Counted from the first letter of the stretch, positions 44,636-63,238 are shown. The stretch is 64,000 bases of DNA from a virus (IMGVR_UViG_3300042691_041259:32001-96000), one strand, 5' to 3'. Translations and numbers: made by a program. The notes: a model not told the origin generated them from the letters alone.

Positions 44636-44893
44636 TTAAAGATTCTTTAAAATCTCTGCCGTACTTTTTATTGTGTCCTCCACTTCCGTTCGTTTAGAAT
44701 CATCCATGACTACGGTGATTACTACCCGATCTTTAGACTTACCGTCGGGCTGATTGTCAAGTACCTCAGCTCCAAGAGGTTTAAGGTCGTTCAACAAATT
44801 GAACGTGTTAAAGTCTTTACCGACTTTCAGCAAATAGCGGTACTGCTTTTTGCCTTCATAAAGAAACTCTACGTAATTTGATACGTGTCTCAT
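44636..44893 (-). CDS. Small protein with capsid-targeting-like N-terminus
   Basis: Begins MRHVSNYVEFLYE; remainder a small alpha/beta (ACT-like) domain. Confidence 0.7.
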   Translation of the reverse strand: MRHVSNYVEFLYEGKKQYRYLLKVGKDFNTFNLLNDLKPLGAEVLDNQPDGKSKDRVVITVVMDDSKRTEVEDTIKSTAEILKNL

Positions 44894-45249
44894 TTAAGAG
44901 TCAATAAGTATTTGAGTTTGTCAAGCGCTGCTTTGATCTCATCGCAAATGTTCTTTAATTCGCTATCGCCATCTGCAATAAACGCGTTAGAGAAGAAGTC
45001 CAGCAAGCCATCAATAAAGGGTTCAACTTTAATGTTGTCAATATCGGCAACCGCAATCTGCTTCATGCCACCAAACTTGGGACGGCCATACTTACCGCTA
45101 TATGCTTCAATCAAGCTGTCAAACAGCTCATCCAATGTATCGTAAGTCATGCCAAAAGCATTATGCTCTGCGTAGCTTTCTGTTTGCCAGTGTAATACTC
45201 GCAACTGTGCCTGGATTTGTAGCACGTTATTTAAGAGTTCTTTTTCCAT
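44890..45249 (-). CDS. Ferritin/Dps-like four-helix protein (DUF5856-like)
   Basis: LRVLHWQT.SYAEH.AF...YD.L....D...EAY.GKYG. Confidence 0.75.
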   Translation of the reverse strand: MEKELLNNVLQIQAQLRVLHWQTESYAEHNAFGMTYDTLDELFDSLIEAYSGKYGRPKFGGMKQIAVADIDNIKVEPFIDGLLDFFSNAFIADGDSELKNICDEIKAALDKLKYLLTLK

Positions 45250-45305
45250 TTATCTTTTTTGGTTTTTACGCTTCTTGTATAATCATTGCATCAATGATAT
45301 GACCT

Positions 45306-45623
45306 TTATTTGTTTACCCAAGCACCTTCTTCTCCGTATGTGTATACGGCAACTTCGGAATTGTGCTTAACCGCAATAAGTTCCATTTTGTCCCAGTCTG
45401 AATCCTTCTTCAACTCATCAGCTACACCGGATTGATCGTATTTCTTTAACTTCTTGTCAAAGTCTTTTCCAACCGCAGTGTCAACCACCTGCCATGCATT
45501 GTCATCTCCGTATACAAAGGCAGTATTGCCAGGTTTTACTTGGTCAAACGACTTTGGATTGTATTTAACAGCTTCGCTCATAGAATCGCTGATGAAGCTT
45601 TCATATGTTTTAATATGTTTCAT
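45306..45623 (-). CDS. Small protein with capsid-targeting-like N-terminus
   Basis: Begins MKHIKTYESFISD. Confidence 0.8.
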   Translation of the reverse strand: MKHIKTYESFISDSMSEAVKYNPKSFDQVKPGNTAFVYGDDNAWQVVDTAVGKDFDKKLKKYDQSGVADELKKDSDWDKMELIAVKHNSEVAVYTYGEEGAWVNK

Positions 45624-45649
45624 TCCTTTGATTATTTTATTTGTAGAAG

Positions 45650-45877
45650 TTAGTCTTTGTATTCAGCTCTTTCCTCGGCCTTTGCAGCATCAATGATATC
45701 GATGATGCAATCTGCTAATCTATCTGCATGTTTATAGTCTAAGATTGCTCCAGTTGCTTGTAGCTCCTTTTCCAAAGCTTCCACAGCTACTTTAACTTCA
45801 CCTTCCAAACTTGGTCTGATAGCTTTTGTTATTGCTCCTTCATTTAAGAAGTTCTCAAATGTGCGTACGTGCTTCAT
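45650..45877 (-). CDS. Small protein with capsid-targeting-like N-terminus
   Basis: Begins MKHVRTFENFLNE. Confidence 0.8.
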   Translation of the reverse strand: MKHVRTFENFLNEGAITKAIRPSLEGEVKVAVEALEKELQATGAILDYKHADRLADCIIDIIDAAKAEERAEYKD

Positions 45878-45898
45878 TCTTTGATTTTTTTTACCTAC

Positions 45899-45906
45899 TA
45901 TATATC
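45899..45906 (-). promoter_or_regulatory. Putative late promoter GATATATA upstream of tagged-protein cluster
   Basis: Exact 8-mer 22 nt before ATG at 45877. Confidence 0.55.
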
Positions 45907-45911
45907 TTAGG

Positions 45912-47729
45912 CTATAGAGCGCCTTCTAACCACTTCTTACGTTTGTTAGAATTTAAACCGAAAGCAATATCAATGTACTTACCCGAGGTACGGTCATTTT
46001 TGATCTTGAACATGGCTCGCTCGGCCATGACAACTTCCCAGTCCTGAATGCTTAATGAACCCAGACCCTTAAGGTAGCGGACGTTGCTCATCTTATTACC
46101 AGCCTTTTCATAATTACCAAAATCTTCCAATGAGTAAAAGTATTGCCTTTTGCTATTAACATCTATTGATGCAAGCGGCGTAATAAGAATATTGAGTTTT
46201 CCACTTTCAATTACATCAGGGAACCATTTATAGAAGAGGTTGATTACCAAGGAGGCAATGTGACCAATACCATCCGGGTCCCAGTCAGTTGCAATGGCAA
46301 CGTTTGCAAAGGTACAGCCTTTACCATTTCCAGGTTCCAGATTAAGGATGTTCATCAAGTCAATAATCTCCGCGTTGGTTCCCAAGTCCCTAACGGTGCG
46401 GGCATTCTTAATCTTACCTTTAAGTGAGTAGACTCCGTCAGTTCGAGGATCACGCTTTTGCAGAATGGATCCCATTGCCGAAGAGCCTTCCACAATAAAC
46501 AGGGTTCCTTTAGACTGAGAAGGCGGGAAGTACTTGTCGCTTACCTTTTTGTTGGCAGCTTTTTTCTTGGCCTTCAGATTATTAAGGTCTTGCTTTAGGT
46601 TTCGTTCGTCAATTTTCTTTCGAATAATCTGAAAGATTTCCGATCCAAGAAGTTGACGCTTAAGCTTTCCATAAAACTTCTTTTCCAACAGTGGTTGAAT
46701 TTCCCAGCGGCCACCTGCGTACTTGGTCTTATTTTGGTCGCCAAATTTGACAAGCTTAGGCGGAAGATTAAGAACAAACATGGTTCCATAAAATGCGTGT
46801 GCATCATTATAGTCAAACATCTCGTTTACCCAGTCATACATAATACGTTGGTGAATGCCTGAGCAGTTGGCGCCATTGATAAATGATACCGAAGTACCAT
46901 TGGCATAGCCTTCCCAGAGGAAGAAAGTTCCAACGTCGGTATGAACCTCAAGGAAGAGCTCGGGTAGAAATGGCAGGTCCAGGTTGAGTTCTTTTCCATC
47001 AAACACAAACTCAAGCTTCATGTTCTGAAGCTGTTGGTCGCGCTTGAGCAAGAACTGTCGAAACGCAAACATGGTATGAAGATACTCTTGATCCCATGTG
47101 CATCCTTTGAACGTGTCTTTTCGAGGCGTGTATGTAATAGTAGTACCAGTCTGTGCTTTGCCTACTGGTGAACATGTTTCCTCGCTCTTTTCAAAGCGAT
47201 TCCACTTGATGCAATAGTCCACTTCGCTATTGACTGTGTGAACCTCAAAAGAGTCAGATAGCATATTTACCAGAGCTGCACCAACACCATTGGTGCCTAT
47301 AAGACTTTCGGAAGAGTTTTCATTGTAAAAGTTGGATCCAGCACGTAGCATTGAGAGAGCCGTTTCCACATTACTCAAACCAGTTTTGCTGTTAGCCTTT
47401 TCAGCATTGACAAACCCGCCTCCGGTATCAACCACTTTTACTTGATTGGTCTTGGAATTGATTTCTACTCGGATCTTTGGCATTACGCCTTTCATGCGCT
47501 TGGCTTCATCAAATGCGTTATCAACAATTTCATTAAGCATCTTATAGAAGCCTACTGAAATTACTTTAGGTTTAGCAACGATTCGGCCGTTCTTACCGCC
47601 TTCATCAACTTCAATGATCTGCACTTTTTCGTCAGAGCGTTCAACCGAACCAATATACATGGTAGGTCGATGTAGTACGTGCTCAAAGTCCGAGAGAGCT
47701 ACGATTTCTTTACTGTTGTTTTTTGCCAT
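45912..47729 (-). CDS. gp39: Type II topoisomerase, GyrB/ParE-like subunit (T4 gp39+gp60 fused)
   Basis: EHVL.RP.MYIGS, EIVDNA.DE, D.GGG, G.NG.GA..VN; TOPRIM IVEG.SA, LKGKI.N, TD.D.DG.HI, RYLKGLGS. Confidence 0.95.
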   Translation of the reverse strand: MAKNNSKEIVALSDFEHVLHRPTMYIGSVERSDEKVQIIEVDEGGKNGRIVAKPKVISVGFYKMLNEIVDNAFDEAKRMKGVMPKIRVEINSKTNQVKVVDTGGGFVNAEKANSKTGLSNVETALSMLRAGSNFYNENSSESLIGTNGVGAALVNMLSDSFEVHTVNSEVDYCIKWNRFEKSEETCSPVGKAQTGTTITYTPRKDTFKGCTWDQEYLHTMFAFRQFLLKRDQQLQNMKLEFVFDGKELNLDLPFLPELFLEVHTDVGTFFLWEGYANGTSVSFINGANCSGIHQRIMYDWVNEMFDYNDAHAFYGTMFVLNLPPKLVKFGDQNKTKYAGGRWEIQPLLEKKFYGKLKRQLLGSEIFQIIRKKIDERNLKQDLNNLKAKKKAANKKVSDKYFPPSQSKGTLFIVEGSSAMGSILQKRDPRTDGVYSLKGKIKNARTVRDLGTNAEIIDLMNILNLEPGNGKGCTFANVAIATDWDPDGIGHIASLVINLFYKWFPDVIESGKLNILITPLASIDVNSKRQYFYSLEDFGNYEKAGNKMSNVRYLKGLGSLSIQDWEVVMAERAMFKIKNDRTSGKYIDIAFGLNSNKRKKWLEGAL

Positions 47730-47768
47730 TAGTTTATCTTAGAGTACATTTATTTTTGTGTACATTAT

Positions 47769-47794
47769 TTATATTAACCCAAGTAATAAAGTTT
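47769..47794 (-). promoter_or_regulatory. Bipartite promoter AAACT-N13-TAATATAA upstream of gp39
   Basis: One mismatch to motif, 13-nt spacer. Confidence 0.5.
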
Positions 47795-47820
47795 TTCTAT
47801 GGTCACCTCTATACACTAGA

Positions 47821-49653
47821 TTAGCCTTCATTGATGACGGAATAAGATATAATCCGGATGCCTTTTTTACGGGCTTCTGCCATTTTGCTGCTAGTAGAAT
47901 TAAGATCATCGGTAAAAAGAACCTTTGCATCTTTTAAACCTGTATGGTGATAGCCTTTTGCTTTAGCAGATTCAATGAATTCTTGTTTGGTTTTAAAGCC
48001 AGCGCCTTTTGGTGAACCTGTCATTTCAAAAGAAATGCTTTCCTTTGAGATTGCTTCGGGCAGAACTACCTTAATGTATTTACTGATTTCCGCCACAGCA
48101 TTTTCATATGCTATACGTTTTGGTTGACCTGGTTCATAGCCGTTAACCACAGCTTTTTCCAAACCATGGAATGAATAATCAACTCCTGAAATGTAGTTGC
48201 CAATCTGTGTAGCAGTAGTTCTTCCCATATTACGAGAAGCCAAGATCATTAAGATTTCTTTTGGAGTAATTTCCTTGATACGGGCAAGCTGTTCAAGCAT
48301 ATTAGCCAGGATTTTTCCGTCCTTGAAACCTTTAGAGATTAAGATCTCCTTATTGAATTTGTTAGGATTCAACAATTCCAAACCGCTGCGGTAACCTACC
48401 GAAAATAGTTGTTTAATCATTGAACCGCCAACCCCGTCAAGATCCAGCCATGCTACGCCTTGGTAAAATTTATGCCATTCCAAAAGATAGCAGGATTCAT
48501 TTTCACACATTAGATGAACTCCGGTTTTAACCAATTCCGAACCACATTTACAGTGAGACGGATGCTCAAATTCTGTAACATTTCCAGGACTGATTACTCG
48601 AAGAATCTGAGGAATGATATCGCCAGATTTTGCAATAGCCACCTGTGCTCCTGGGTAAGCACCCATGTTTTTCAGATACGTGTAATTAAACAGTGCAGCT
48701 CGTGAAACGGTAGAACCATCCAGATCCACCGGTTCCATCACAGCAACTGGAGTAACCGCGCCGGTTTTACCATATTGCCAAGAAATAGATTTGATGGTAG
48801 TAACCGCCTCTTTAGGAGGAAACTTAATAGCCACTGCCCAGTTGGGATCATGGCTATTTTCACCCCAGACTGGTCGAAGGCCTTCCGGCGCCTTAATCAC
48901 AAAACCATCCAATTGGTATTCGGAAGTTTTGCGGTAATCTACCATGTCTTTGTAAGCGGCCTCAAAATTACTAGCACCGCCATAAAAGATATGAGCGGTA
49001 TGTTTGAATCCAGGAACCCGAGGTGTAACATAGATTATTTCGCCATCTTTATGTTGACGAACTTCCAGTGGTATGAAGTCAAGATCCTGAATAACTTCAG
49101 TAGGATTCTCGTCCCGGTTCAGGACGCCTGCCACATAGTTACGAGGATTCTTAAAAGAAGCGTACTTGGAATTAAAAGTAGCTATACGTATAACTACCTC
49201 GCCTCGAACTTCTACAGTTCCGCTAAGGTCAATTGTTTCTGGTAGATTGTGTTTTACCTTGTCAGTAATATCCCGACCTTTATTACCATTACCACGGGTG
49301 AGAACCTGTGAAAGACTTCCATCTACGTAAATTGCATTTGCAGCGTTTCCATCGTATTTTGGAGTGTATTCAAAAGAGTTAGATCCAAATTTATTCATCC
49401 ATGCTACCGCGGATTCAGTAGGAGGGTTTCCATCAAGAGAAGCTTGATACTTTGCCAGAGACAGCATTGGCGATGGATGAGAATACTTGGCTTTACGATC
49501 ATCGGCACCTACGATATACGGAACATCAGAACCAAGAGAAAGCAAGTCTGCTTCCAAACGGTCAAATTCATCATCAGTAAGAATAGGGGTTCCACTATAA
49601 TAGGCTTCCTTAGCAGCCATGTATTGTTGTTCTAAATCGAAACGGTTACTCAT
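47821..49653 (-). CDS. ligA: NAD-dependent DNA ligase
   Basis: YY.G.P..TD.EFD.L, H.SPMLSL.K, adenylation motif KYDG, TRGNG..G.DIT, EVRGE, NPRN..AG, DG.VIK, W..A.KF, G.TG.VTP, zinc finger C.CGS...C.N..C. Confidence 0.95.
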   Translation of the reverse strand: MSNRFDLEQQYMAAKEAYYSGTPILTDDEFDRLEADLLSLGSDVPYIVGADDRKAKYSHPSPMLSLAKYQASLDGNPPTESAVAWMNKFGSNSFEYTPKYDGNAANAIYVDGSLSQVLTRGNGNKGRDITDKVKHNLPETIDLSGTVEVRGEVVIRIATFNSKYASFKNPRNYVAGVLNRDENPTEVIQDLDFIPLEVRQHKDGEIIYVTPRVPGFKHTAHIFYGGASNFEAAYKDMVDYRKTSEYQLDGFVIKAPEGLRPVWGENSHDPNWAVAIKFPPKEAVTTIKSISWQYGKTGAVTPVAVMEPVDLDGSTVSRAALFNYTYLKNMGAYPGAQVAIAKSGDIIPQILRVISPGNVTEFEHPSHCKCGSELVKTGVHLMCENESCYLLEWHKFYQGVAWLDLDGVGGSMIKQLFSVGYRSGLELLNPNKFNKEILISKGFKDGKILANMLEQLARIKEITPKEILMILASRNMGRTTATQIGNYISGVDYSFHGLEKAVVNGYEPGQPKRIAYENAVAEISKYIKVVLPEAISKESISFEMTGSPKGAGFKTKQEFIESAKAKGYHHTGLKDAKVLFTDDLNSTSSKMAEARKKGIRIISYSVINEG

Positions 49654-49683
49654 TTGGTTTTTATTGACAGTATAAAAATAACC

Positions 49684-49715
49684 AAAAAAGCCGAAAGAAA
49701 AAAATCTTTCGGCTT
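49684..49715 (-). terminator. Rho-independent terminator
   Basis: AAGCCGAAAGA / TCTTTCGGCTT stem followed by T run on minus strand. Confidence 0.8.
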
Positions 49716-49741
49716 AAAGTTATTAACAATTTTACTGCTTA

Positions 49742-49939: not shown

Positions 49940-49971
49940 GATGTTTTTTTGTAGTTTAGTTTGGCTATATA

Positions 49972-50658: not shown

Positions 50659-50660
50659 TG

Positions 50661-52517
50661 TTATACGATTTCGCAGGCCCCACCAGCGCATGCAGCTTCT
50701 CCTTTCAGATCGGTTGCATCTTCAATTTCGATTACTTTAGTGAGGTCTACATTATGTAAATTTTGGTACAGCTCATTAAATTGTTCTTCGGTGATATTTT
50801 CAAACGGAGCCTGAACATAGGTACCACCGTCATACGGAAGTACTGATAGTCCATTGTAGTATTTGCGGTTCTTCCACATCCATTCGCCAACAGTTGCCCA
50901 CTCGTCTTCTTTGATAGAAACTGTAGCAGATACGTTATGACTATTGTAACCACTTTTGTGACCGGGCTTAATCCATTCGCTGCTGAATTTCTTTACACGG
51001 TTGAGAAGATCCAAAGCAGACTCAGTACGAAGGATAGCACCTTTAGGAGCTCTTTGTGGAATTTCAATTACCGCTGTAGTATGAGGAGAGAAGAACTCGT
51101 CCTTTACCAGTTCTGGATGATTTTCAGCCAGGTAGTTGTAAATTGCCTCGTTCTTTCCTACGCGTACTCGGCGGATGTAGAAGTCGTTATGCCAAGCGTG
51201 AATACCAGATGATGAACCTACAACAAGAGAAGTAGTTCCGCTAGGCTTAACAGTGGTGGTACGAGCTGCAGGATTGATTCCAATAACAGCAGCCACTCTT
51301 TCATTCTCAGCACGAACCGCTTTTGAAGCAGCTGTGAGATCGTAATTAAGGACTGCGCCCGAACCAATGCCGGTCATGCCAACACCTACCAGTGCATCTT
51401 TCTCAGTAGTACGCTTCCAAACTGGACGGAGGTAGTGAAAGTCTGTGTAGCCAGCTTGGAGCGTTCCAATAAACGCTGCAGCTTTAGCACGTTCTACCAA
51501 GTCTTCTTGGCTTTCCACATCGCTAACATTCATTTCTGTAAGATTGCAAAACTGGAAAGGACGCAGAGCAATTTCACAGCATGGATTGGTTCCCCAATCT
51601 TTGTCGTTTGAGAAGTATAAACCAGGTTCACCTGATCCCGATGCTTCAATTTTCTTCCAAATATCTTGAAACTCTTCCTCGGTGATACGATTACGAATGA
51701 TTACTGCGCTATTGTTTGAGCGACCGCGCTGTGGGTTAAGTTCCCACCAGTTGCCAAACTTGCAAGTAAGCATTTCATCGTCATCAAAAGAGAACAGAGA
51801 AATCAAGGCAGCACGACGGATACCACCGGCAAGTACCGCATCAGCAATATGGCAAACAATATCGTGAACCTCAATAGGAGAAAGCTTGTCGCCATTTTCC
51901 TTACGGTCCAGGATAAGTTCCAAATTACTTAGGCAGCGCTTAAGTGGCTCAGGTCCAGGAGCCTTACCACCGGATGTTACAAGACGAGCACCCTTTGGAC
52001 GAACATCGCTAAAATCAAAGACTGGCTTATAGCCTCCATGAAAATACGACTTCATCAAAAACTTCACGGCATCAGCCCATCCTTCAATACTGTCGCCTAC
52101 AAGGAAACGGCGGTTTTTCTTGGGTTTGATGATTTCAGGAAGTTTTTCTACGTGATGGGATTGAACAGAATAGCCAACACCTGTTCCTCCTAATAATAGG
52201 AACATCACTTCGCCAAACGCTCTCCAGTCGTCAACTGGAAGGTAGGCACAATTAAAAATACGGTTCGGTGAAATTTCGATAGGTTTTCCACCAAATTGCA
52301 TACTTCTCATAGAAGGCAGAACCTTCTTGGTCTTTACAAAATTCTCGTAAACGTTTTCAATTTCGTCGGATAAGGCAGGGTACTTCTTCTTATGCATTTC
52401 TTTGTTGCGGTCAGAAATTTCTTCCCATGTTTCTCTGCGTTGTTTGTCCTCTTGGTACTTCGAGTACTTCATAAAGACTGTGATATCACTGAGGATATCA
52501 ATGGATTTGTCCTTCAT
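50661..52517 (-). CDS. nrdJ: Class II (adenosylcobalamin) ribonucleotide reductase, monomeric RTPR type
   Basis: PSMR...FNC, GTGVG.S, GG.RR.A.I, EPG, TNPCCEI, CNL.E, TT.KPSGT.S, C-terminal ACAGGACE; no beta subunit nearby. Confidence 0.92.
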   Translation of the reverse strand: MKDKSIDILSDITVFMKYSKYQEDKQRRETWEEISDRNKEMHKKKYPALSDEIENVYENFVKTKKVLPSMRSMQFGGKPIEISPNRIFNCAYLPVDDWRAFGEVMFLLLGGTGVGYSVQSHHVEKLPEIIKPKKNRRFLVGDSIEGWADAVKFLMKSYFHGGYKPVFDFSDVRPKGARLVTSGGKAPGPEPLKRCLSNLELILDRKENGDKLSPIEVHDIVCHIADAVLAGGIRRAALISLFSFDDDEMLTCKFGNWWELNPQRGRSNNSAVIIRNRITEEEFQDIWKKIEASGSGEPGLYFSNDKDWGTNPCCEIALRPFQFCNLTEMNVSDVESQEDLVERAKAAAFIGTLQAGYTDFHYLRPVWKRTTEKDALVGVGMTGIGSGAVLNYDLTAASKAVRAENERVAAVIGINPAARTTTVKPSGTTSLVVGSSSGIHAWHNDFYIRRVRVGKNEAIYNYLAENHPELVKDEFFSPHTTAVIEIPQRAPKGAILRTESALDLLNRVKKFSSEWIKPGHKSGYNSHNVSATVSIKEDEWATVGEWMWKNRKYYNGLSVLPYDGGTYVQAPFENITEEQFNELYQNLHNVDLTKVIEIEDATDLKGEAACAGGACEIV

Positions 52518-54676: not shown

Positions 54677-55036
54677 ATGCACAGAGCAACATCAATCTTT
54701 AATGCCGTTGATGACATGTTTGAGTTCGTCAACCACAATTCATCAACCTACTCAAAGACCGACCTTCGTCAAGACGAGAACGGTTACGCCATCGATATTC
54801 TCCTTCCTGGGTTCTCCAAAGAAGAAGTGACAGTGCGCACTGAAGGTAAAAACCTTATTGTAGAGGCAAGCACTGAGAGAAAGCTACCTAAGTTTCTCAA
54901 CAGCAGCATGAAGAAGACGTTCCAGGTAGATAACTTGGATTCTGAATCTGTCACTGCAAAACTTGAAAATGGCGTACTAACTATTGAATTCTCTACCGAG
55001 GCGAAGAAAAATGCTCGGAGCATCAGTATTCTGTAA
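54677..55036 (+). CDS. Small heat shock protein (Hsp20/alpha-crystallin)
   Basis: D..Q.E.GY.I...LPG..KE.V.V...L.V.A ... F...... V.AKLENGVL.I; A-rich leader; only credible + strand gene. Confidence 0.92.
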   Translation: MHRATSIFNAVDDMFEFVNHNSSTYSKTDLRQDENGYAIDILLPGFSKEEVTVRTEGKNLIVEASTERKLPKFLNSSMKKTFQVDNLDSESVTAKLENGVLTIEFSTEAKKNARSISIL

Positions 55037-55052: not shown

Positions 55053-55079
55053 AAAAAAGCGGTCTAATGGCCGCTTTTT
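55053..55079. terminator. Bidirectional terminator between convergent hsp20 and minus-strand cluster
   Basis: AAAAAAGCGG / CCGCTTTTT stem with A and T tracts on both sides. Confidence 0.85.
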
Positions 55080-55314
55080 ATTTGTCTTTCTTTCCAAAAA
55101 GCTCATGATACTTCTTGGTGTGTTTAGATGTCTTTAATTGCTTCTTACCTTTAGTATCTCCAGGAAGCTCTTTGTAAGCATTAGGATCATCGTCATCAGC
55201 GGCAGCTTGATCCGCCATCTGATCTTTCTTCTTATCTGCAGTGCTTTTGCTAATTCCTTTGTAGTAAGGATGCTCTTCAGCTAAGAAGCTTTCGTATGTC
55301 TTTACGTGTTTCAT
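55078..55314 (-). CDS. Small protein with capsid-targeting-like N-terminus
   Basis: Begins MKHVKTYESFLAE. Confidence 0.8.
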   Translation of the reverse strand: MKHVKTYESFLAEEHPYYKGISKSTADKKKDQMADQAAADDDDPNAYKELPGDTKGKKQLKTSKHTKKYHELFGKKDK

Positions 55315-55316
55315 CT

Positions 55317-55577
55317 TTATTTATGGAGCTTTTCAAAATAGTCTATTAGGCCTTCAATAGCCTTTTCCTTGGTCTTGAATATGTCGTCGGCCTCGGTCAT
55401 GCCTGTTCCCGACTTATTTTCTCGGTGCCAAGTCCATCCACCCAGATGAGTATCTTTGTATATCTCAACTTTATGACCTTTGTAAGTTCCTTCGTAATAA
55501 CCAGTAGTAATCTTACGAAGTTTTAGATCAGAAGCGGATTCATTAACAAAACTTTCAAATGTGCGGACGTGTTTCAT
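55317..55577 (-). CDS. Small protein with capsid-targeting-like N-terminus
   Basis: Begins MKHVRTFESFVNE. Confidence 0.8.
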   Translation of the reverse strand: MKHVRTFESFVNESASDLKLRKITTGYYEGTYKGHKVEIYKDTHLGGWTWHRENKSGTGMTEADDIFKTKEKAIEGLIDYFEKLHK

Positions 55578-55583: not shown

Positions 55584-55907
55584 CTATCCTTTTACTTCAT
55601 CGGCCAAGTCTTTATCAGCCTTGCCCCATGTACCTTTGCCTTTAGTAAGGAAGCTGTTAACACGAGCATATGCCCACTGTTCTTGCCCAGCTCCTGGACG
55701 GTGCCCACTCTTCCATGCAGCCATACCACGACGAAAAACCGCGCGAATGATTCCAATAGGAACGCCAGTCTCTTCAGCTTTTTTCTTTAGACCAGTTTCT
55801 ACAGCATCGTTGTCAATAGGACTACGGTCTGTGGATTTCTGTTCGCTGTCATCAGCTTCCCAGATCTTTTCCCACTCAAAACTTTCAAATGCGCTTATAT
55901 GTTTCAT
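55584..55907 (-). CDS. Small protein with capsid-targeting-like N-terminus and conserved phage domain
   Basis: Begins MKHISAFESFEWE; L.KKA..TG.P...VF.RG.AAW.SGHRPG....QWA.ARVNSF...G motif. Confidence 0.8.
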   Translation of the reverse strand: MKHISAFESFEWEKIWEADDSEQKSTDRSPIDNDAVETGLKKKAEETGVPIGIIRAVFRRGMAAWKSGHRPGAGQEQWAYARVNSFLTKGKGTWGKADKDLADEVKG

Positions 55908-55912: not shown

Positions 55913-56251
55913 TTACTTTTTTACGTAAATCGCTCCAATGATACCGCCTTTTCCGAAAACTTTGGCCTTGATTACTTTTTTATCTGGTGATAATCTAGCC
56001 TCACCCTGATATGATTGCGATCTCCAAATAACTTCCCATTTTTCCGTATCAGACGCATACTTCTTTATCATTTTGTCATATTCGCCCTTTGGAGCTTTAT
56101 CGTCAAACATGATGTATGCATCGTAGTCTTTACCCAGGACCTTATCAACGACATTTTTTCTCATTTCGTCATCGGTAAAATTGGAGTTGCCGCCAAGAAA
56201 CGCGTAATGCGATTCGGCAATAAAACTTTCAAAATTGTGTACGTGTTTCAT
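55913..56251 (-). CDS. Small protein with capsid-targeting-like N-terminus
   Basis: Real start MKHVHNFESFIAE at 56251 (ORF track extends into the upstream gene). Confidence 0.8.
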   Translation of the reverse strand: MKHVHNFESFIAESHYAFLGGNSNFTDDEMRKNVVDKVLGKDYDAYIMFDDKAPKGEYDKMIKKYASDTEKWEVIWRSQSYQGEARLSPDKKVIKAKVFGKGGIIGAIYVKK

Positions 56252-56451: not shown

Positions 56452-56456
56452 TCTTT

Positions 56457-57059
56457 TTAGGATAGGTAGCCTGAGATAAATTTAGAGTCTTCTACCAAGG
56501 AATCAAAAGTGTTTTCTACGTTCTCATCAATATCACTGATATTGTAACATACAATGAAACCAATGAGTTTCTTCTTAATGCAAAAAATTGGAACTGTTAC
56601 AAATTGCTGAATTCCAAGTCGATCCATTTCCTGGCGGTCTTTCATTTCAAGGTCTTCACTTAGTGTTGAGAAGCATTCCTTTTTAAGCATTGTAGAAATC
56701 CAGCGTGGGTATTCTGATGCCAAAATGTTCTGATGATCCCGTTTAGTCTTTTCATAGCCAGGCGCCACAGACTCATAGGTCATAGAGAATTTTTTCATGC
56801 TTCTTCCTTGAAAATACTTTCCACCGTTGTGGAACTGGAAAATTGAGGCCCGGTCAAATTGGTGTTTTTCTCTCAGTCCGTCCAGCCATTCTTGAACCTG
56901 AATCATTTCTTCAATGTCAGACTCCTCAATGTTTTCCTCTTTTTCTTTTGCATTTTTCGCTTTCCTATTGTCATAGTTATTCTTTACCATAACCGTGATT
57001 AGTGCAGCAACTATTGATCCTGCAGCTGTAATGACAGCCTTTAATAATTCCGTGTCCAT
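56457..57059 (-). CDS. Possible T4 gpT-like holin (single N-terminal TM + GAF-like domain)
   Basis: TM helix AVITAAGSIVAALITVMV, then DRASIFQFHNG...S..YE...PI......GFI GAF-like pattern. Confidence 0.5.
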   Translation of the reverse strand: MDTELLKAVITAAGSIVAALITVMVKNNYDNRKAKNAKEKEENIEESDIEEMIQVQEWLDGLREKHQFDRASIFQFHNGGKYFQGRSMKKFSMTYESVAPGYEKTKRDHQNILASEYPRWISTMLKKECFSTLSEDLEMKDRQEMDRLGIQQFVTVPIFCIKKKLIGFIVCYNISDIDENVENTFDSLVEDSKFISGYLS

Positions 57060-57062
57060 CTG

Positions 57063-57200: not shown

Positions 57201-57219
57201 CTCTCATCAAATGCTTTTT

Positions 57220-57906
57220 TTACTTGGGCGGAGCAAGATCCAACTCTTTCATCATATCAACTAGTTCGTTGTATCCGATTTCGCGAAAGTCTTTTTCCAA
57301 CCGCTTTCTATCTGTGTGAGGTGATCCTGAGACTACCTCAGATATTTTCTTTTTCAACTTGTCATCTCCGGTGTCAAATGCGGAAAGAATTCTTTGCACA
57401 TTTACATCACCTAAAGCCATTTCTTCAATATAGGCTTCATAAAGTTTAACGTGTTTCATCTTTTTCTTCTTTTTCTTTTTTGTTCCGGCACCGAAAGTAT
57501 CTCCGCTTCCAACTTTACCAGAAGCGGCAGGTGTAACGTTTCCCATACCTGGTGTATTTGCTACGCTTGCAGCTGGCGCGCCAAAATCTTCTTCAACCTT
57601 TTTTGACTTTTTACCAGTCACAAAATCCATAAAAGCTTGGACCAGCGGATCTGTTTGATCACGCTTCATTGCCATTGCTTGACCAGCCATCATCTGTGGT
57701 TGAGTATCCCACCAGTAGTAGTATTCTTCCACATGGTTAGGTAGCCCTTCATGTTTTGTAGAAGCAAAGTCCTTCAGCTGTTTTAATGTCATGGAATCCG
57801 CAAGGTCTTTTACCTCATCACTTGCGTCTTTTGGATCCATCTCATCTTTTTTCAAGGCGTATGCCATGGCCATCAATTTTTGCTGGGCTTTGGATGTTGC
57901 TGGCAT
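57220..57906 (-). CDS. DUF3008-like N-terminus fused to an internal capsid-targeting-like motif
   Basis: MPATSKAQQKLM...MT.KQL.DFASTKH.GLP; internal KKKKKKK-MKHVKLYEAYIEE (Met at 57459). Confidence 0.75.
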   Translation of the reverse strand: MPATSKAQQKLMAMAYALKKDEMDPKDASDEVKDLADSMTLKQLKDFASTKHEGLPNHVEEYYYWWDTQPQMMAGQAMAMKRDQTDPLVQAFMDFVTGKKSKKVEEDFGAPAASVANTPGMGNVTPAASGKVGSGDTFGAGTKKKKKKKMKHVKLYEAYIEEMALGDVNVQRILSAFDTGDDKLKKKISEVVSGSPHTDRKRLEKDFREIGYNELVDMMKELDLAPPK

Positions 57907-57907
57907 A

Positions 57908-58090
57908 TTATTTGCCTCCTAATGTTATGATTGATTGACGAGCATCCTCAATTGCTTGTAAGGTCTGCTTCATATTCTTGTCATCTGCAATTGATGAAGC
58001 CTCATCAAAGCACTTTAAGATTTCTTGAAGCTGCGGAGTTAGCGCCTCTTCAATTGACATTTTTTCTTTGAATTCTCCAAAAGACCTCAT
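57908..58090 (-). CDS. Small protein with T4-CTS-like N-terminus
   Basis: Begins MRSFGEFKE. Confidence 0.65.
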   Translation of the reverse strand: MRSFGEFKEKMSIEEALTPQLQEILKCFDEASSIADDKNMKQTLQAIEDARQSIITLGGK

Positions 58091-58422
58091 TTCTGTGACG
58101 TTAATTTTTCGTGGATTCTCTTGCCTTCTGCAGACAGAGTATAGTACTTGATTCCTTCTTCCTCTTTCAGTTTGAAATACTTGGAATTAGCTTTCAGCCA
58201 ACCAGTATTAGTCTTTCTACCAGTTTCTTCATTCATCATCTTCAGGAACTGTGACATTTCTTCTTCACTCACCTTTCCTTTTTCGTTAACAAGTGAAAGG
58301 ATTCTTTCTCTGACTGGCGCATAGTTGGAAACCACCTTTTGGGGGTGCGACTCCGTGTATTTTCTTTTTACAACTACTATCGCTTCGTTAAGGAATTCGT
58401 TATATGATTTTACATGACTCAT
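58087..58422 (-). CDS. Protein with capsid-targeting-like N-terminus and winged-helix-like body
   Basis: Begins MSHVKSYNEFLNE; C-term YYTLSAEGKRI resembles a wHTH wing; GATAAATA at 58444-58451. Confidence 0.75.
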   Translation of the reverse strand: MSHVKSYNEFLNEAIVVVKRKYTESHPQKVVSNYAPVRERILSLVNEKGKVSEEEMSQFLKMMNEETGRKTNTGWLKANSKYFKLKEEEGIKYYTLSAEGKRIHEKLTSQK

Positions 58423-58453
58423 CAGTCTTTCTGTATTTTTCTATATTTATCTC

Positions 58454-60133
58454 TTATAGGTATGCTTTCTGCTGCCAAGATGATTGCATTTGTGGCCAAA
58501 AGCTGTGAGTACACTGTGGGAATACTCCTTTGAACGCTTTGTAATCTTCTCTTTCAATACAGTCCCTAATTGCATTTGCTTCTTGCGACTGGATCTGAAA
58601 GATACTGTTTTCATATTTCTTTCCAGAAATGGTATTATGTGTATCTGCTTCTTTAACCAACGCATTAGTAGATCTTCCTACATATATGTCTCCAATCTGG
58701 CGGCCGCCTCCAGCCTTTAGCAGCTTCTTTAAACTGGGATCTTTCATAGATTCATAACAGTCAAACAAGTGTGGGTATTCTTTCACAAGTTGCTTCCCAA
58801 CAATATCTCCTTGTTCTGGATCCATTCCCCAGAGGCAATTACGGCCAGCTGCTGAATCATGGATAAGCACAAAAGATTTTCCACTAAATTTAAGTATCCT
58901 CTCGCACTCTGCCAGAACCTTGTTTGTAATTTCTCCCATGTTCATAAATAGCAGATTGCATTCATGCACCACCTCAGGTTTTTCATCCTCACTAGTAGTC
59001 ATAAAAGGCATTGCAAAATAAGATTGCATCATGCCTACGGCTCTCATTGCTTGGTCTTCCGAAAACCCAGTCTCTTCTCTGAAGTCAACTTCTTTTTCTT
59101 CCTTTTCAAGAATGGTGTTAAACTCAGGAAACCCAGAGTCCTCGGCATTTCTAACCGATTCTTCCAGAGTATAGATCTTCTGATTAAAGTTTTCCACAAA
59201 TGATTCTGTGAGCAGCCCGCCTGGCTTTTTAGGTTTTCTTAGGTTTACCAAGAAGATGCCTAGCAAATACTCGTAATCTTTATGAGATTCTAGTATTGAG
59301 AGAGTCTTGGGATTGCGTACCCATCTGCGATTAAACTTGCCGGACTTCTCTAGAAAGCTGGGTTTTTTAATTCCCATTTCCAAGAACTCAGATCCTTTTT
59401 CTTCAACGAAACGGTTGAAAGCTTCAGATACCAATTCAATATACCTTTCGTCAGGCCTTTCCGATCTAAATACAAAGCGATCAAAATCAAGTCTTTGGAT
59501 GTGTTCGTACATCTGAAGCATGAGGAGGTCAAATACCTGGCTCTTTTGTTCTCGTACTTCTCTTTCGCAAAGCGGTGCAATTTTGGCAATTCCGTCATCT
59601 CCTTTAAGAATGAATGTTTTTTGTGGCGCGCTTTCAAAAATAGGTTGTTGACCATTTTTCAATGAAGTCATAAGGGATTCAATTACCGAACCGTCAATAA
59701 GGCCTTCCAACTCTTCACCTGATTTTACATGCAAAAGGTTAGCCCATTTTGCTATAATATGATTTTCATTGATCTGCTTTATCACTTTCCCGTATTGTCT
59801 TACTGTAATATCTGTAAGAGTCAGCCCTCTTTCTGGAACCCAGCTAAAGCCAAACCTATGGCTTTTAGGCAGATTTAGAACTATGGCTTCGGGAAGCTTT
59901 TCAACTTTTGAAATTGCACTTTCATATAGATCACTGACAGTTCTGTCAATTCTATTAAGTGGCTTTTCGGAATTCTTTCCATAAAAACGGAGCTTTCCGT
60001 TCTTTGAAAGTTCAAAGGAGAAGCGATACGCTTCCGCCTTTTCAGTTACGCGCAGACCGGACGATAGAAAGTTTCTTGTCCATTCTTCTCCACGCTTTGC
60101 ATAGATTTCTTGTAAAGTGTTAATACCTGCCAT
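58454..60133 (-). CDS. Multidomain protein: degenerate ligase-like N-terminus and degenerate cytidyltransferase-like C-terminus
   Basis: VTEKAEAYRFSF resembles TEKxDG ligase motif I; C-term IRDCIEREDYKAFKGVFP resembles cytidyltransferase-family tail; no HIGH motif. Confidence 0.5.
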   Translation of the reverse strand: MAGINTLQEIYAKRGEEWTRNFLSSGLRVTEKAEAYRFSFELSKNGKLRFYGKNSEKPLNRIDRTVSDLYESAISKVEKLPEAIVLNLPKSHRFGFSWVPERGLTLTDITVRQYGKVIKQINENHIIAKWANLLHVKSGEELEGLIDGSVIESLMTSLKNGQQPIFESAPQKTFILKGDDGIAKIAPLCEREVREQKSQVFDLLMLQMYEHIQRLDFDRFVFRSERPDERYIELVSEAFNRFVEEKGSEFLEMGIKKPSFLEKSGKFNRRWVRNPKTLSILESHKDYEYLLGIFLVNLRKPKKPGGLLTESFVENFNQKIYTLEESVRNAEDSGFPEFNTILEKEEKEVDFREETGFSEDQAMRAVGMMQSYFAMPFMTTSEDEKPEVVHECNLLFMNMGEITNKVLAECERILKFSGKSFVLIHDSAAGRNCLWGMDPEQGDIVGKQLVKEYPHLFDCYESMKDPSLKKLLKAGGGRQIGDIYVGRSTNALVKEADTHNTISGKKYENSIFQIQSQEANAIRDCIEREDYKAFKGVFPQCTHSFWPQMQSSWQQKAYL

Positions 60134-60191
60134 CTGTTTTTCGGCTTTGAGGTTTTTGTTTTTTCAACCCACATTATGAATTGTATACTAT

Positions 60192-61079
60192 TTATCCAAT
60201 TCCTTCGGGCAGCGGAAGCCCGGAATCATCAAGCTTTTTCTTATAGTCGCTCATGATATCATTTAAGCTTCCAGGATACTTAAAGTCTCCGGAAGTGAGC
60301 AACGAATAAAGTTTTTCATACGTATCAATATCAGAAGGCTTATGTCCACCATTAAATAGCAAGTCTACCACGCCTTGCGGCTCTCGAGTGATGAGTTTGT
60401 CATATTCGCTTAGAAGCTTCGCGGTCTTTACTAGTCCTTTCTTGCCTTCAAAGCTTTTTCTTACTTCCACAATGCCTTGATTTAACCTAACCACGTAGGC
60501 TTTGTACTCGGCAGTTTCTCCTTTGTCGGTTGTCTTTGTGGCCTCGAAAAAAGACTTGCCAATTGCTGCCATAAGCAAAAGGTTTCGGTATGCTCCTTTG
60601 TATTTAGACTCCGCAATTCGAAAGTCGGGTGAGTGGTAGATAAAAGTGCTCCATTCCAGGTCAGTGGAAAGCATGAGGTCAACTTGCCCAACACCATTTT
60701 TATAGTCTCCACCGATTGGAGCTCCAATACTTACTTGATTGAATCCTACTGCAAGTTTGGTGCTCATACCCATATCTTTTAATTTGTCATTCAAAGCAAA
60801 CAGAACTTTCTCGAGAGACACTCCTAAATGTCCAGCAATCTTGTCAGCCGAAACCGCCAAGTCAATGTCTCCGCTGGTTTGATCCGCCAATTTTTTGCCG
60901 GCACTTCCAAGAATTGCTGCATCATCTTTTATACCAGTTAGACCAATCTGTGGAAACACATTTTTTTCTACCCATGCTATGGTAGATTCTATTTGATCCT
61001 GTTTAAAAGGCACGGCATTCTCAATGGAGTTTCCGCTTTCAAATATGAACTGTTCAAATAGCTTAACGTATCTTTTCAT
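60192..61079 (-). CDS. Pol-beta superfamily nucleotidyltransferase with capsid-targeting-like N-terminus
   Basis: Start MKRYVKLFEQFIFE (TAATG coupling at 61079); ILGSAGKK....SGDIDLAV and QVDLM (hGS..DhD..D triad). Confidence 0.85.
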   Translation of the reverse strand: MKRYVKLFEQFIFESGNSIENAVPFKQDQIESTIAWVEKNVFPQIGLTGIKDDAAILGSAGKKLADQTSGDIDLAVSADKIAGHLGVSLEKVLFALNDKLKDMGMSTKLAVGFNQVSIGAPIGGDYKNGVGQVDLMLSTDLEWSTFIYHSPDFRIAESKYKGAYRNLLLMAAIGKSFFEATKTTDKGETAEYKAYVVRLNQGIVEVRKSFEGKKGLVKTAKLLSEYDKLITREPQGVVDLLFNGGHKPSDIDTYEKLYSLLTSGDFKYPGSLNDIMSDYKKKLDDSGLPLPEGIG

Positions 61080-61600
61080 TATTCCCAGTCTTTTCTCTTT
61101 GATGCTTCTGAAGCAGTTAGCCATTTTCCATCAACTACATCATAGTAGATTGAATCGTTTGGCTCGCCTGGAAAGATTAGCGAACAGCCATTGCTGCCAC
61201 CGCCAGCGTGCTTATAGCTATAGTTAAGAGTTGCCCAGATATATGGTGCAAACTCAAAGTTTTCACCAGACGCCTTGTTAATCTGTGGGAATCCGCCGCC
61301 AGAAAAAGTATTGATATAGACTTCAGCAAAACCATATTGCATAACACCTAGATCTTTACCGGTTAGTGGTTTGCTGTCGAAAGAAATACGCTTGCCGTGT
61401 GCTTTAGCAGTTAGCGCATTGTATTTAATTCCTTGGCGGCTTAGCAAATCGTTAAGAGCCGGACCGGCGTTCTTAAGAATATCAGCCATTAGGGTTGCTT
61501 CATCCTTGAATTTAGGATTGCTGGTGTAAAGAGTGTTGTCTTCGTTGAGGACATCAGCATTTTCGTTCAAATAGTTATCAAAAGACTTAATGTGTTTCAT
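61079..61600 (-). CDS. Protein with capsid-targeting-like N-terminus
   Basis: Begins MKHIKSFDNYLNE. Confidence 0.8.
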   Translation of the reverse strand: MKHIKSFDNYLNENADVLNEDNTLYTSNPKFKDEATLMADILKNAGPALNDLLSRQGIKYNALTAKAHGKRISFDSKPLTGKDLGVMQYGFAEVYINTFSGGGFPQINKASGENFEFAPYIWATLNYSYKHAGGGSNGCSLIFPGEPNDSIYYDVVDGKWLTASEASKRKDWE

Positions 61601-61859
61601 TATATTTTGTTATTTTGGCTTCTAAATCCGTGGTGCCACGTATCACACGATGCATTACACCTTTTGGAATATAGATCGGTTTATTTATCCACGTAGGAAG
61701 TTGATTATCGAACTGAAATTGCCAGTCGTTTTCGTTTAGAGGTTCAACTATGCGGTCTTCGTCATCCCAATGCCACTTAAGTTCCATCTCGTCCAGATCC
61801 GCTGAAAAAGTCCGTATTACTACGGACTCACTAATTTTCTTTTCGGAATATGGCTTCAT
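61587..61859 (-). CDS. Small cupin-fold protein
   Basis: WHWD.EDR.VE...W.FQ.D......IYIPKG..HRVI.G (cupin motifs 1 and 2). Confidence 0.75.
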   Translation of the reverse strand: MKPYSEKKISESVVIRTFSADLDEMELKWHWDDEDRIVEPLNENDWQFQFDNQLPTWINKPIYIPKGVMHRVIRGTTDLEAKITKYNETH

Positions 61860-62089
61860 TCTGTCACTTCAAATACCGCTTCGCCTACCTTTACAGTTTT
61901 ACCTAATAGATCATCAATAAAGTAGATGTTTCCATAATTGTCCTCAAATCGCATATCATCAGTAAATTCATCTGATGCTTTTAACACTTGTAAAATTTCT
62001 GCAGGGCTCTCAGACACCTGTTCTTTTCCGCTGTTATCTAGAACATCAGCAAAGAGCACAATTTCTATAAGACTATTTTCAGTAAACAT
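61856..62089 (-). CDS. Small acidic hypothetical protein
   Basis: 77 aa, overlaps both neighbours. Confidence 0.6.
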   Translation of the reverse strand: MFTENSLIEIVLFADVLDNSGKEQVSESPAEILQVLKASDEFTDDMRFEDNYGNIYFIDDLLGKTVKVGEAVFEVTE

Positions 62090-62300
62090 TAGGTATAGGT
62101 TTTTTCCTTTTGGTAAGTTCCGCTTTTACTTCTTCAAGATCTTTACTGAGAAGCTCGGCTTCTTTCTTTTTTCCACGCGATTCTGCAGCCTTCTTTTCAT
62201 TGGAAAGCTCTATAACTTGAGCAGCCAATTCATTGTTAGAGTACGCACTCCAAGAATCTGTTTCATTTAAAAAGTTTTCAAATGTTTTTACGTGTTTCAT
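62079..62300 (-). CDS. Small coiled-coil protein with capsid-targeting-like N-terminus
   Basis: Start MKHVKTFENFLNE at 62300. Confidence 0.8.
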   Translation of the reverse strand: MKHVKTFENFLNETDSWSAYSNNELAAQVIELSNEKKAAESRGKKKEAELLSKDLEEVKAELTKRKKPIPNVY

Positions 62301-62319
62301 ATTGCTTATATTCATATTT

Positions 62320-62859
62320 TTACCAAGGTTCTTCTGAGCTTAAACCAAGTTGTTTTCCAAATAGTGAAGGAGCATAGCACGCCCAAAAACCTGCGGTGGT
62401 TGGATCCATCTTCTTTTTCAGATCGCACTGTTGGCGGGACCAAAAGCTTGCTGAAGCTTTAGGATCATCGTTTTTAATACTGAGACCGCTAGTATCGCCC
62501 CATGTGATCTTTACTGCAATGATATTTCCATCATCATCTTTCTTTCCACTATTATGATAGACTGTAAACTTTTTATCTCCTCCGCGGAAAGGGGTGTCGA
62601 GTTCTACGTCGATCATTTTTCCATCAGAAGTTTTAAACTTGGCCTTGGTTCCCACTTCTAAATTAGAGGCCATCCAAGCAGCCTTGTCCGAGAGAATCAC
62701 ATTATCCTCGTCCCAATACTTCTTGGTTTCTTCAAAAAGCTCTTTATAGGCTTGGCTGCCTAGACGGTAAATTGAGTTGGTAATGTCCAACCCGTTTTCC
62801 ATGTGGTAGCGAAATCCCTCAGAAACCTGAAAGTCTTCAAATGTCTTTACGTATTTCAT
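62320..62859 (-). CDS. Protein with capsid-targeting-like N-terminus and conserved phage C-terminal domain
   Basis: Begins MKYVKTFEDF; KF.VY......KITWGD......DP.A..SF..R..C...D...AGFWAC. Confidence 0.8.
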   Translation of the reverse strand: MKYVKTFEDFQVSEGFRYHMENGLDITNSIYRLGSQAYKELFEETKKYWDEDNVILSDKAAWMASNLEVGTKAKFKTSDGKMIDVELDTPFRGGDKKFTVYHNSGKKDDDGNIIAVKITWGDTSGLSIKNDDPKASASFWSRQQCDLKKKMDPTTAGFWACYAPSLFGKQLGLSSEEPW

Positions 62860-62860
62860 G

Positions 62861-63238
62861 CTAGTATATGATTTTAACAGGTACTTCTTTGACCCCTATT
62901 TCTTGTAGAGCTAGCATGCGGTGTGAACCATCGTGAAACGATGGCGCAAGGCCTTTATCGTACTGAAACTTATCAGCAAACCACATAGTTGGTGCTGGAA
63001 TATCTTTGGCATTTCCTCGGAATTCTTTAACATAATTAGCAACTTTGGTTTTATTAACTTCAAATCTATGATGTTGGACTCTCTTTAAGAAGTCAATAGG
63101 ACTCATGTTAACAATAATCTGTATAAACTCACTACTATGCTTCTTTAAATCATCATCCCAATCTTCACGACCAGTAGTATCCGTGTTAAATGATATAGTC
63201 TCATTTAGGAAGTCTTCAAATGTCTTTACGTATTTCAT
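62861..63238 (-). CDS. ParB/Srx-like domain protein with capsid-targeting-like N-terminus
   Basis: Begins MKYVKTFEDFLNE; P.......DG.HR..AL...G...VPV.I (HDGSHRMLALQEIGVKEVPVKI). Confidence 0.75.
   Translation of the reverse strand: MKYVKTFEDFLNETISFNTDTTGREDWDDDLKKHSSEFIQIIVNMSPIDFLKRVQHHRFEVNKTKVANYVKEFRGNAKDIPAPTMWFADKFQYDKGLAPSFHDGSHRMLALQEIGVKEVPVKIIY

Follow-up and report, generated by a model that had tools for sequence, protein, structure and literature searches.

A short N-terminal tag resembling the T4 capsid targeting sequence on about 30 proteins of a T4-type phage contig

In bacteriophage T4, internal proteins carry propeptides of 10-19 residues that target them to the core, and the first ten residues of IPIII are sufficient for this purpose (PMC9026906). 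Mutational mapping of the capsid targeting sequence (CTS) assigned targeting mainly to residues 4 and 7 (Tyr4 and Phe7) and processing to residues 8 and 10 (Ile8 and Glu10); Asp at position 10 blocks cleavage while targeting is kept (PMC9026906). The protease gp21 cleaves after L/I-x-E, and the T4 core proteins gp67 and gp68 are likewise processed at L/I-x-E (PMC9026906). The T4 literature regards the CTS as a possibly general way of loading proteins into capsids (PMC3012670, PMC9026906), and both papers, citing Repoila et al. 1994, describe the T-even internal-protein loci as sets of diverse genes that have nothing but the CTS in common and vary among related phages. For the giant phages phiKZ, 201phi2-1 and SPN3US, excerpts of three papers report ejection or inner-body proteins that are processed by the prohead protease (PMC5694885, PMC7411985, PMC10052503). 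Here, we describe a short N-terminal tag resembling the CTS that is shared by otherwise unrelated proteins in a stretch of 64,000 nucleotides (nt) of viral DNA, called the window below, which comprises bases 32001-96000 of the 202,505-bp linear IMG/VR viral contig IMGVR_UViG_3300042691_041259 (G000; CheckV completeness 66%). Positions are window coordinates unless they are stated to be genome coordinates. We propose, with a probability of roughly two in three, that the shared N-terminus is a propeptide of the CTS type: it would bring many proteins into the prohead, where the prohead protease would afterwards cut it off. Docking, packaging, cleavage and ejection are proposed by analogy with T4.

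The tag and its likeness to the T4 sequence

A preliminary description of the window had listed 15 tagged N-termini. All of them were found on the minus strand at their start positions, including the one at 57459, which is internal to the open reading frame (ORF) 57220-57906, as had been claimed. The full form of the tag is M-K-H-V-K-T-[FY]-E-x-F-[LIV]-x-E. Shorter and longer dialects (for example MKSFKEFLNE, MNYTKSFETFVAE, MRKEYVKTFESFIFE, MANYVKLFEQWLVE and the long form MKTFQTFK..INE) extend the range of tag lengths to 10-17 residues, and with the dialects included about 30 of the approximately 211 ORFs of the contig are tagged. Two of the 15 listed N-termini are weaker variants: the one at 58090 (MRSFGEFKE..SIEE) fits the long form, and in the one at 62859 the L/I position is occupied by Q, with V-S-E displaced one residue towards the C-terminus. 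In a six-frame regular-expression scan of the whole contig, the core tag gave 16 matches, all in real ORFs and, except for 57459, all at ORF starts, with zero matches in other frames. In 17 ORFs the looser heptad aromatic-x-x-aromatic-[LIVM]-x-[ED] begins no later than residue 10, compared with 0.9 expected from its internal frequency (Poisson 2e-16); its N-terminal enrichment also holds in two related contigs. BLASTP among 31 tag-stripped bodies returned one marginal pair (E 0.009), in agreement with the earlier view that the bodies behind the tag are unrelated.

The tags were aligned in register on their final Glu and compared with T4, where ipII and ipIII both begin with MKTYQEFIAE in the database record. 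The tags have F/Y at position -6 and F/W/Y at -3, and most have L/I/V at -2 and Glu at 0; the aromatic columns are partly set by the search pattern, and the strict six-frame regular expression recovers them independently. These four most conserved positions are the four residues that were mapped as functional in the T4 CTS. Of the 53 collected tags, 27 have Gly, Ser or Ala directly after the Glu, and a few tags end in Asp instead of Glu. The dialect MKSFKEFLNE has the exact length of the T4 CTS, and the maturation site of T4 gp23 itself, FGSFLTE followed by A, conforms to the tag heptad. The likeness to the T4 CTS put forward in the preliminary description is well supported by comparison, on the basis of these four residues and of the capsid gene, a relative's protease, the scaffold heptad and a promoter-like motif described below.

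The motif also occurs inside longer proteins. ORF 57220-57906 (minus strand) encodes a fusion of 228 amino acids (aa) with a DUF3008 domain (Pfam PF11450, residues 3-59), a poly-Lys linker, the internal tag MKHVKLYEAYIEE (57421-57459) and a 79-aa body. In its orthologue in the closest relative, G002, the internal motif is kept as KKKVKVFEEYIEE without Met, and the internal tag is therefore more than an additional start codon. In a 601-aa tagged protein of the contig, an internal FEEFVNE occupies exactly the place at which a separate gene of G002 begins with a tag of its own, MKNYKEFITE. In a 183-aa tagged protein, a second site, FESFL[SA]E, is conserved in the contig and G002 despite 54% protein identity. 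These sequences suggest that the motif works within polypeptides, which fits a cleavage or docking module and not a start-codon context.

A similarity kept at the level of DNA or translation, by a favourable A-rich context of the start codon or by a gene-shuffling recombination cassette, the peptide itself being without a role, would agree with the A-rich first codons of the tag (AAA, CAC, GTA, AAA, ACA). Codons for identical tag residues are also the same slightly more often than expected from codon usage (a fraction of 0.61 vs 0.50), and the common 39 nt could support recombination of the kind proposed for the T-even internal-protein loci by Repoila (1994), cited in PMC3012670. However, synonymous codons vary freely and the DNA upstream is not conserved, which argues for selection on the peptide and not on the DNA. 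The conserved internal copies without Met and the conservation of the peptide across relatives at 60% identity speak against the same alternative. A purely DNA-level or translational explanation is unlikely, and with no role at all left to the peptide we give it hardly any credence.

Prohead genes of the relatives and predicted expression of the tagged genes

A Gp23-family capsid gene (PF07068, 43.9 bits) is located at the extreme end of the contig and is truncated by the contig end; a C-terminal stretch of the encoded fragment is almost identical to the full-length Gp23 protein of G002. The contig belongs to a T4-type phage, and its host is probably a member of the Bacteroidota. The closest matches of the DNA polymerase and capsid proteins were found in uncultured huge phages (LR756500), Lak megaphages, the Tenacibaculum phages PTm1 and pT24, the Sphingomonas phage PAU and Chryseobacterium phages, and no near-identical DNA was found among sequenced phages. 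The full genome is expected to be approximately 300 kb, and this size and the inferred host phylum are compatible with the aquatic 'moraphages' (PMC12619734). Relatives were gathered by the exact DNA pattern for MKHVKTFE, which yielded 16 further viral loci, and five contigs were tested for a protease. The closest relative, G002, is 143 kb long and syntenic with the contig (average amino acid identity 68.6% over 97 proteins). G001 (IMGVR_UViG_3300042261_002385; 436 kb, 95% complete, 33% identity) and G003 are more distant than G002. In G001, about 22 genes spread over both strands carry a separate dialect of the tag, M-x-x-x-R-Y-x-x-F-[IL]-x-E. G001 is classed as a 'provirus' by IMG/VR, although it is 95% complete, huge and equipped with T4-type head genes. 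In the first 50 kb of the Lak megaphage Lak-C1 (capsid protein 40% identical), read with TAG as Gln, none of 40 ORFs was tagged, and the capsid gene is not adjoined by the protease gene; the search went no further.

In G002, a full Gp23 gene (130 bits) is adjoined by a 631-aa ORF, which occupies the position of the next gene beyond the cut end of our contig. The N-terminal third of this ORF matches Peptidase_S77, the family of T4 gp21, with 45.7 bits vs a Pfam cut-off of 27, and also matches Peptidase_S80 (26.9 bits). A Peptidase_S77 match was obtained in three of the five contigs tested (G002, G001 and G003), above the Pfam cut-off in G002 only and weak (22 bits) in G001 and G003. The contig itself, which is 66% complete and ends inside the capsid gene, gave no match to the gp21-type protease family PF03420. 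The middle of the G002 ORF consists of about 10 tandem 14-residue repeats, each ending in Y-[AS]-E-[YH]-[LIV]-A-E, and the corresponding ORFs of G001 and G003 contain 11 and 15 such repeats with the consensus NLDKNIAYSEYIAE. The three ORFs, located at L031:17092-18987 in G002 (minus strand), 269288-271387 in G001 (minus strand) and 1205-3562 in G003 (plus strand), carry 10-15 heptad copies, mostly in tandem. In all three of these tag-bearing relatives, the heptad of the scaffold repeat is the heptad that ends the tag. The heptad has a frequency of 0.6-1.1 per 1000 residues in these proteomes; N-terminal tags and scaffold repeats make up roughly one third to two thirds of the matches, and the remainder is scattered singly. 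The period of 14 residues equals two heptads and suggests a long helical array. Judged from these sequences, the tag end in this lineage is the repeated site of a scaffold that the prohead protease must dismantle. No description of a protease fused to a tandem-heptad scaffold was found in the papers searched.

In the proposed mechanism, the tagged proteins would be made together with the virion genes. The tag would dock the cargo onto the protease-scaffold core, where the gp23-type shell assembles, and by analogy with T4 the two aromatics would be the docking determinants. The activated gp21-type prohead protease would cut after the final Glu of [LIV]-x-E and free the mature cargo inside the head; the same protease would chop the scaffold at its repeated heptad copies, and the cargo would leave the head with the DNA at infection. 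In a more specific form, which we put forward tentatively and consider less likely than not, the tag would be a free-standing copy of the scaffold repeat unit. Cargo would then co-assemble with the Y-x-E-Y-[LI]-A-E array, and one protease specificity would dissolve the scaffold and release the cargo.

The equality of the tag heptad and the scaffold repeat heptad would also be expected if the tag were only a substrate site or assembly handle. The tagged proteins would then be auxiliary, scaffold-like components that are degraded or expelled at maturation and not delivered as effectors, in line with the processing of T4 gp67 and gp68 at L/I-x-E and with the many tagged proteins that are small and without a recognisable function. 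Unlike a disposable scaffold, however, several bodies are folded domains or enzymes (a nucleotidyltransferase (NTase) fold, an ATP-grasp enzyme, a ferritin-like protein and a confidently modelled 173-aa protein), and apart from the tag a strong internal site is present in only a few bodies. We consider it improbable that the tagged proteins are disposable parts of the core.

Three motif classes are enriched in intergenic DNA, which makes up 4.7% of the contig. One of them, GATATATAG, has 18 copies on the gene-sense strand, 15 of them intergenic and mostly 24-45 nt upstream of a start codon. At this distance it precedes the genes for the tail sheath, the neck (Hc2-like) and a collagen-like tail fibre, and further copies lie in front of tagged operons, one at window position 45906 and two at genome positions 102635 and 174343. 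The late-type motifs that had been noted at the tagged clusters are present: the copy of GATATATAG at the head of tagged operon 1, a late-type candidate promoter (45898-45906, minus strand), and the variant GATAAATATAG (58441-58451, minus strand) each begin 29 nt before the start codon of a tagged gene (45877 and 58422, respectively). A different motif, TGAATATAA, precedes the genes for topoisomerase II, the replicative helicase, the clamp loader and dUTPase, and a copy is located at 62306-62314, next to the tagged gene 62079-62300. Intrinsic-terminator-like hairpins are found at the end of tagged operon 1 (44608-44630, minus strand; a 10-pair stem followed by TTTTTT) and at the end of the long tagged block (55054-55079, minus strand; a 9-pair stem and a T run, directly after the stop of 55078-55314). 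No comparable terminator interrupts the tagged block up to genome coordinate 102610. Of the three clusters distinguished in the preliminary description, the second and third are parts of one block that runs beyond the window to this same coordinate; the main tagged block is approximately 15 kb long and is accompanied by further clusters. As far as motifs can tell, this arrangement supports co-expression of the tagged genes with virion genes.

The third class, a 20-nt element, TTTTGTATTATTTTTAT(C/A)CTA, occurs in 8-9 copies, all of them intergenic and mostly 33-43 nt upstream of small genes. Further examples of promoter-like motifs are located at genome positions 196113 and 177233.

The embedding of tagged genes among replication genes would favor an action of the tag outside the capsid, as a docking helix for another phage or host machine, in regulated proteolysis or as a modification signal, with a likeness to the T4 CTS that arose by convergence. 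A predicted complex of the G002 protease-scaffold protein (631 aa) with a tagged 112-aa G002 protein had a score of 0.00 and was rated 'no answer', which counts neither for nor against this alternative. An action outside the capsid would not account for the match of all four residues mapped in T4, for the recurrence of the heptad in the protease-scaffold ORFs of three relatives or for the virion-type promoter motif. Moreover, a radical-SAM enzyme (PF04055), which would be expected beside the tagged genes if the tag were a RiPP-like leader recognised by such a maturase, gave no match on the contig, which is 66% complete, and all control genomes matched. No recognisable replication, nucleotide-metabolism or tail protein on the contig is tagged. 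A role outside the capsid is, in our estimation, a minor possibility.

Several points weigh against loading of the tagged proteins into the prohead. The protease and scaffold genes fall beyond the contig end, so the key machinery is visible in relatives only. Most tagged genes sit among replication genes, and their timing is read from the promoter-like motif. The cargo set is large and includes several enzymes (Pol-beta-type NTase, HIGH-motif NTase, ATP-grasp, ferritin-like and PAP2-like), and the median isoelectric point of the bodies is 5.8, unlike the few small basic internal proteins of T4. The predicted N-terminus of the G002 capsid protein has L-x-E sites (e.g. SLNE before G, residue 45) without the full heptad. 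In the nearest cultured relative, Tenacibaculum phage PTm1, the capsid protein is 31% identical and a protease-scaffold fusion is annotated, but this tag family is absent and the scaffold repeat is a different one; because PTm1 is without the tag, no published virion proteome is applicable. The cleavage site of the G002 capsid protein could not be assigned: its N-terminal region aligns unreliably with those of T4 and PTm1, and the full heptad is missing.

Tagged genes, putative cargo and neighboring genes

Tagged operon 1 is encoded on the minus strand and comprises three tagged genes. The first, 45650-45877 (75 aa), starts with MKHVRTFENFLNE followed by G, has no Pfam or PHROG match and has no counterpart in G002. 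In the second, 45306-45623 (105 aa), which starts with MKHIKTYESFISD followed by S, Asp replaces the final Glu. The third, 44636-44893 (85 aa), carries MRHVSNYVEFLYE followed by G, and its G002 orthologue (54% identity) keeps the tag as MKHVSNYFDYMYE. An untagged DUF5856 gene, 44890-45249 (Pfam PF19174, 59.9 bits), lies within the operon. Directly downstream of the operon terminator, 43897-44535 (minus strand) encodes a 212-aa protein that is beta-barrel-like and rich in Gly and Tyr, with what we take to be a signal peptide of the Bacteroidota style.

The tagged genes of the long block within the window are also on the minus strand. At its downstream end, 55078-55314 (78 aa) carries MKHVKTYESFLAE followed by E, which among the 13-residue forms is closest to KTYQEFIAE of T4, and 55317-55577 (86 aa) carries MKHVRTFESFVNE followed by S. 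The tagged gene 55584-55907 (107 aa) has a DUF5824 body (Pfam PF19141, 59.3 bits); a long cytidyltransferase profile (PHROG 3041) has this domain at its C-terminus, and the body thus also occurs elsewhere without this N-terminal tag. Upstream of it, 55913-56251 (112 aa) starts with MKHVHNFESFIAE followed by S. The gene 57908-58090 (60 aa) has a weak long-form tag, MRSFGEFKEKMSIEE followed by A, the weakest of the set, and its G002 orthologue starts with MKTFGEYRE. The tag of 58087-58422 (111 aa) is MSHVKSYNEFLNE followed by A, and that of 62079-62300 (73 aa) is MKHVKTFENFLNE followed by T. A variant site, MKYVKTFEDFQVSE followed by G, is found in 62320-62859 (179 aa) and is the same in the G002 orthologue, which has 84% identity. 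The last tagged gene discussed here, 62861-63238 (125 aa), starts with MKYVKTFEDFLNE followed by T. Its body had been labelled ParB-like, and this label stands as a lead: the Atlas feature search gave a ParB_N cluster with a score of 0.94 and 179 shared features, and a DGSHR motif is present, but there was no Pfam match at E 0.01.

The tagged gene 60192-61079 (minus strand) encodes a 295-aa protein that starts with MKRYVKLFEQFIFE followed by SG. It was modelled with AlphaFold2 (AF2), with a mean predicted local distance difference test (pLDDT) value of 79.8 and values below 50 for residues 1-15. In Foldseek, the model matched the polymerases Pol beta, lambda and mu as well as terminal uridylyltransferases (E 1e-4, probability 1.0, template modelling score approximately 0.39). 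The predicted model thus supports a fold of the Pol-beta superfamily, in agreement with the NTase label given to this body earlier. The protein has 228 relatives. Among the 120 relatives listed, 116 are tagged at the start or a few residues in, after a short extension, and four start differently; the tag is conserved down to 60% identity.

Adjacent to it, 61079-61600 (minus strand) encodes a 173-aa protein with the tag MKHIKSFDNYLNE; in the family alignment, a linker of variable length comes next and then a second L-N-E site, which is invariant (Glu20). Its AF2 model has a mean pLDDT of 88, with a confident fold from residue 22 and values below 50 for residues 1-21; in both proteins that were modelled, the tag falls outside the folded body and is predicted to be disordered. 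In several relatives of the 173-aa protein the terminal Glu of the tag itself is lost and the second L-N-E site is kept. The sequences of this family suggest that targeting is separable from cleavage, as in the longer propeptides of T4, and its tag, linker and second L-N-E resemble the longer propeptide of the T4 IPI type. An assignment of the body as an ADP-ribosyltransferase (Atlas scores 0.87) was rejected: no Foldseek match in the Protein Data Bank was obtained at E <= 0.001, and the best VIA-align Z score, 4.2, was to unrelated folds, despite the confident model.

Other tagged bodies include a HIGH-motif NTase, an ATP-grasp enzyme (PHROG 2599, E 1e-9; weak Pfam matches that do not reach the cut-off) and a protein with a PAP2-like C-terminus (26.7 bits, just under the cut-off). 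A ferritin-like protein (PF00210, 59.5 bits) with the long-form tag MKTFQTFK..INE followed by A is encoded just beyond the window end (L002:1387-1959, minus strand). For the small tagged proteins, searches of Pfam and PHROGs mostly gave no matches.

Two untagged genes on the minus strand lie inside the tagged block: 56457-57059 encodes a 200-aa protein in which a GAF domain (25.5 bits) is combined with a hydrophobic segment at the N-terminus, and 58454-60133 encodes a 559-aa protein with no family match and a G002 counterpart of 55% identity. The gene 54677-55036, one of the few on the plus strand, has a bidirectional terminator in common with the tagged block; its 119-aa product presumably is a protein resembling the small heat-shock type (alpha-crystallin), as its sequence suggests. 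Between conserved neighbors, 50661-52517 (minus strand) is a single 618-aa ORF, which from the look of its translation we take to be a ribonucleotide reductase; in G002, this place (11369-14155) is taken by two unrelated ORFs, 593 and 331 aa long.

Gene turnover and comparison with known systems

In the block that is syntenic with G002, 13 of 24 tagged genes are shared and 11 have no counterpart, and at least six tagged genes are specific to G002. Untagged neighbors showed a similar pattern (10 shared, six not), and a faster turnover of tagged than of untagged genes was not seen (Fisher p 0.75). The set of tagged proteins had been called swappable. This holds to a moderate degree: 11 genes lack a counterpart, the untagged neighbors turn over as fast, and the 295-aa NTase is strongly conserved together with its tag.

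A full-text literature search returned no paper that pairs 'capsid targeting sequence' with any of the huge-phage terms used, and the phrase was not found in the huge-phage, jumbo-phage or Lak papers listed. Propeptides or N-terminal tags are not mentioned in a jumbo-phage overview or in the moraphage paper (PMC12619734). The present system is distinguished by the 13-residue dialect, the unusually large and enzyme-rich cargo set in a Bacteroidota huge-phage lineage and the repetition of the tag heptad in a fused protease-scaffold. If the tag works as in T4, the proteins carried into the host could be read from the genome, which is rarely possible without virion proteomics. The lineage is apparently common in metagenomes, with 228 relatives of the tagged 295-aa protein alone, and the set, about 10 times that of T4 and with enzymes included, would directly provide candidates for host-takeover or counter-defence factors. 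An explanation of how a CTS finds the prohead core is suggested by the heptad that recurs in the fused protease-scaffold. If cargo does co-assemble with the scaffold array, this would be a concrete answer to the recognition of the core by the CTS, a question open for T4, and a sequence rule would predict the whole injected proteome of Bacteroidota phages of the T4 supergroup (about 30 proteins here, with nucleotidyltransferases and ATP-grasp). A further possible use of the tag is as a handle to load cargo into Bacteroidota phages.

The closest comparison is with the CTS of T4 IPII and IPIII; IPI and Alt have related propeptides. In both cases a short N-terminal stretch, a propeptide of 10-19 residues in T4 and a proposed propeptide here, is found on unrelated proteins, with the targeting aromatics, L/I and Glu, followed by a small residue, and a gp23-type capsid is present in this phage and a gp21-type protease in its relatives. 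In contrast to T4, most tags here have 13 residues, with an extra K-H-V after Met, and there are about 30 cargo genes compared with three to four, with enzymes and acidic proteins included. In addition, the protease and the scaffold are fused in the relatives of this phage, and the host phylum is probably Bacteroidota. The polymorphic internal-protein loci of T-even phages are similar in that diverse genes have only the CTS in common and vary between relatives. They differ in that a small locus in close relatives of T4 stands against a block of approximately 15 kb plus clusters, with partly conserved cargo and a turnover equal to that of untagged neighbors.

Encapsulins are similar in that a short peptide addresses unrelated cargo, ferritin-like proteins included, into an HK97-fold shell, and a tagged ferritin-like protein is present here. 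Encapsulin cargo-loading peptides are usually C-terminal and uncleaved and have a different sequence, whereas the tag described here lies at the N-terminus and has a protease-type site at its end. A single HK97/Gp23-type shell gene, the phage capsid gene, was found on the contig, and no dedicated gene for an encapsulin shell. Giant phages of the phiKZ type have long and dissimilar propeptides, and to our knowledge they have no single short N-terminal tag in common. The excerpts on phiKZ, 201phi2-1 and SPN3US describe many head-internal proteins that are cleaved by the prohead protease and delivered to the host, as is proposed here from the genes. In the phage described here, one short tag would predict the whole set from its sequence.

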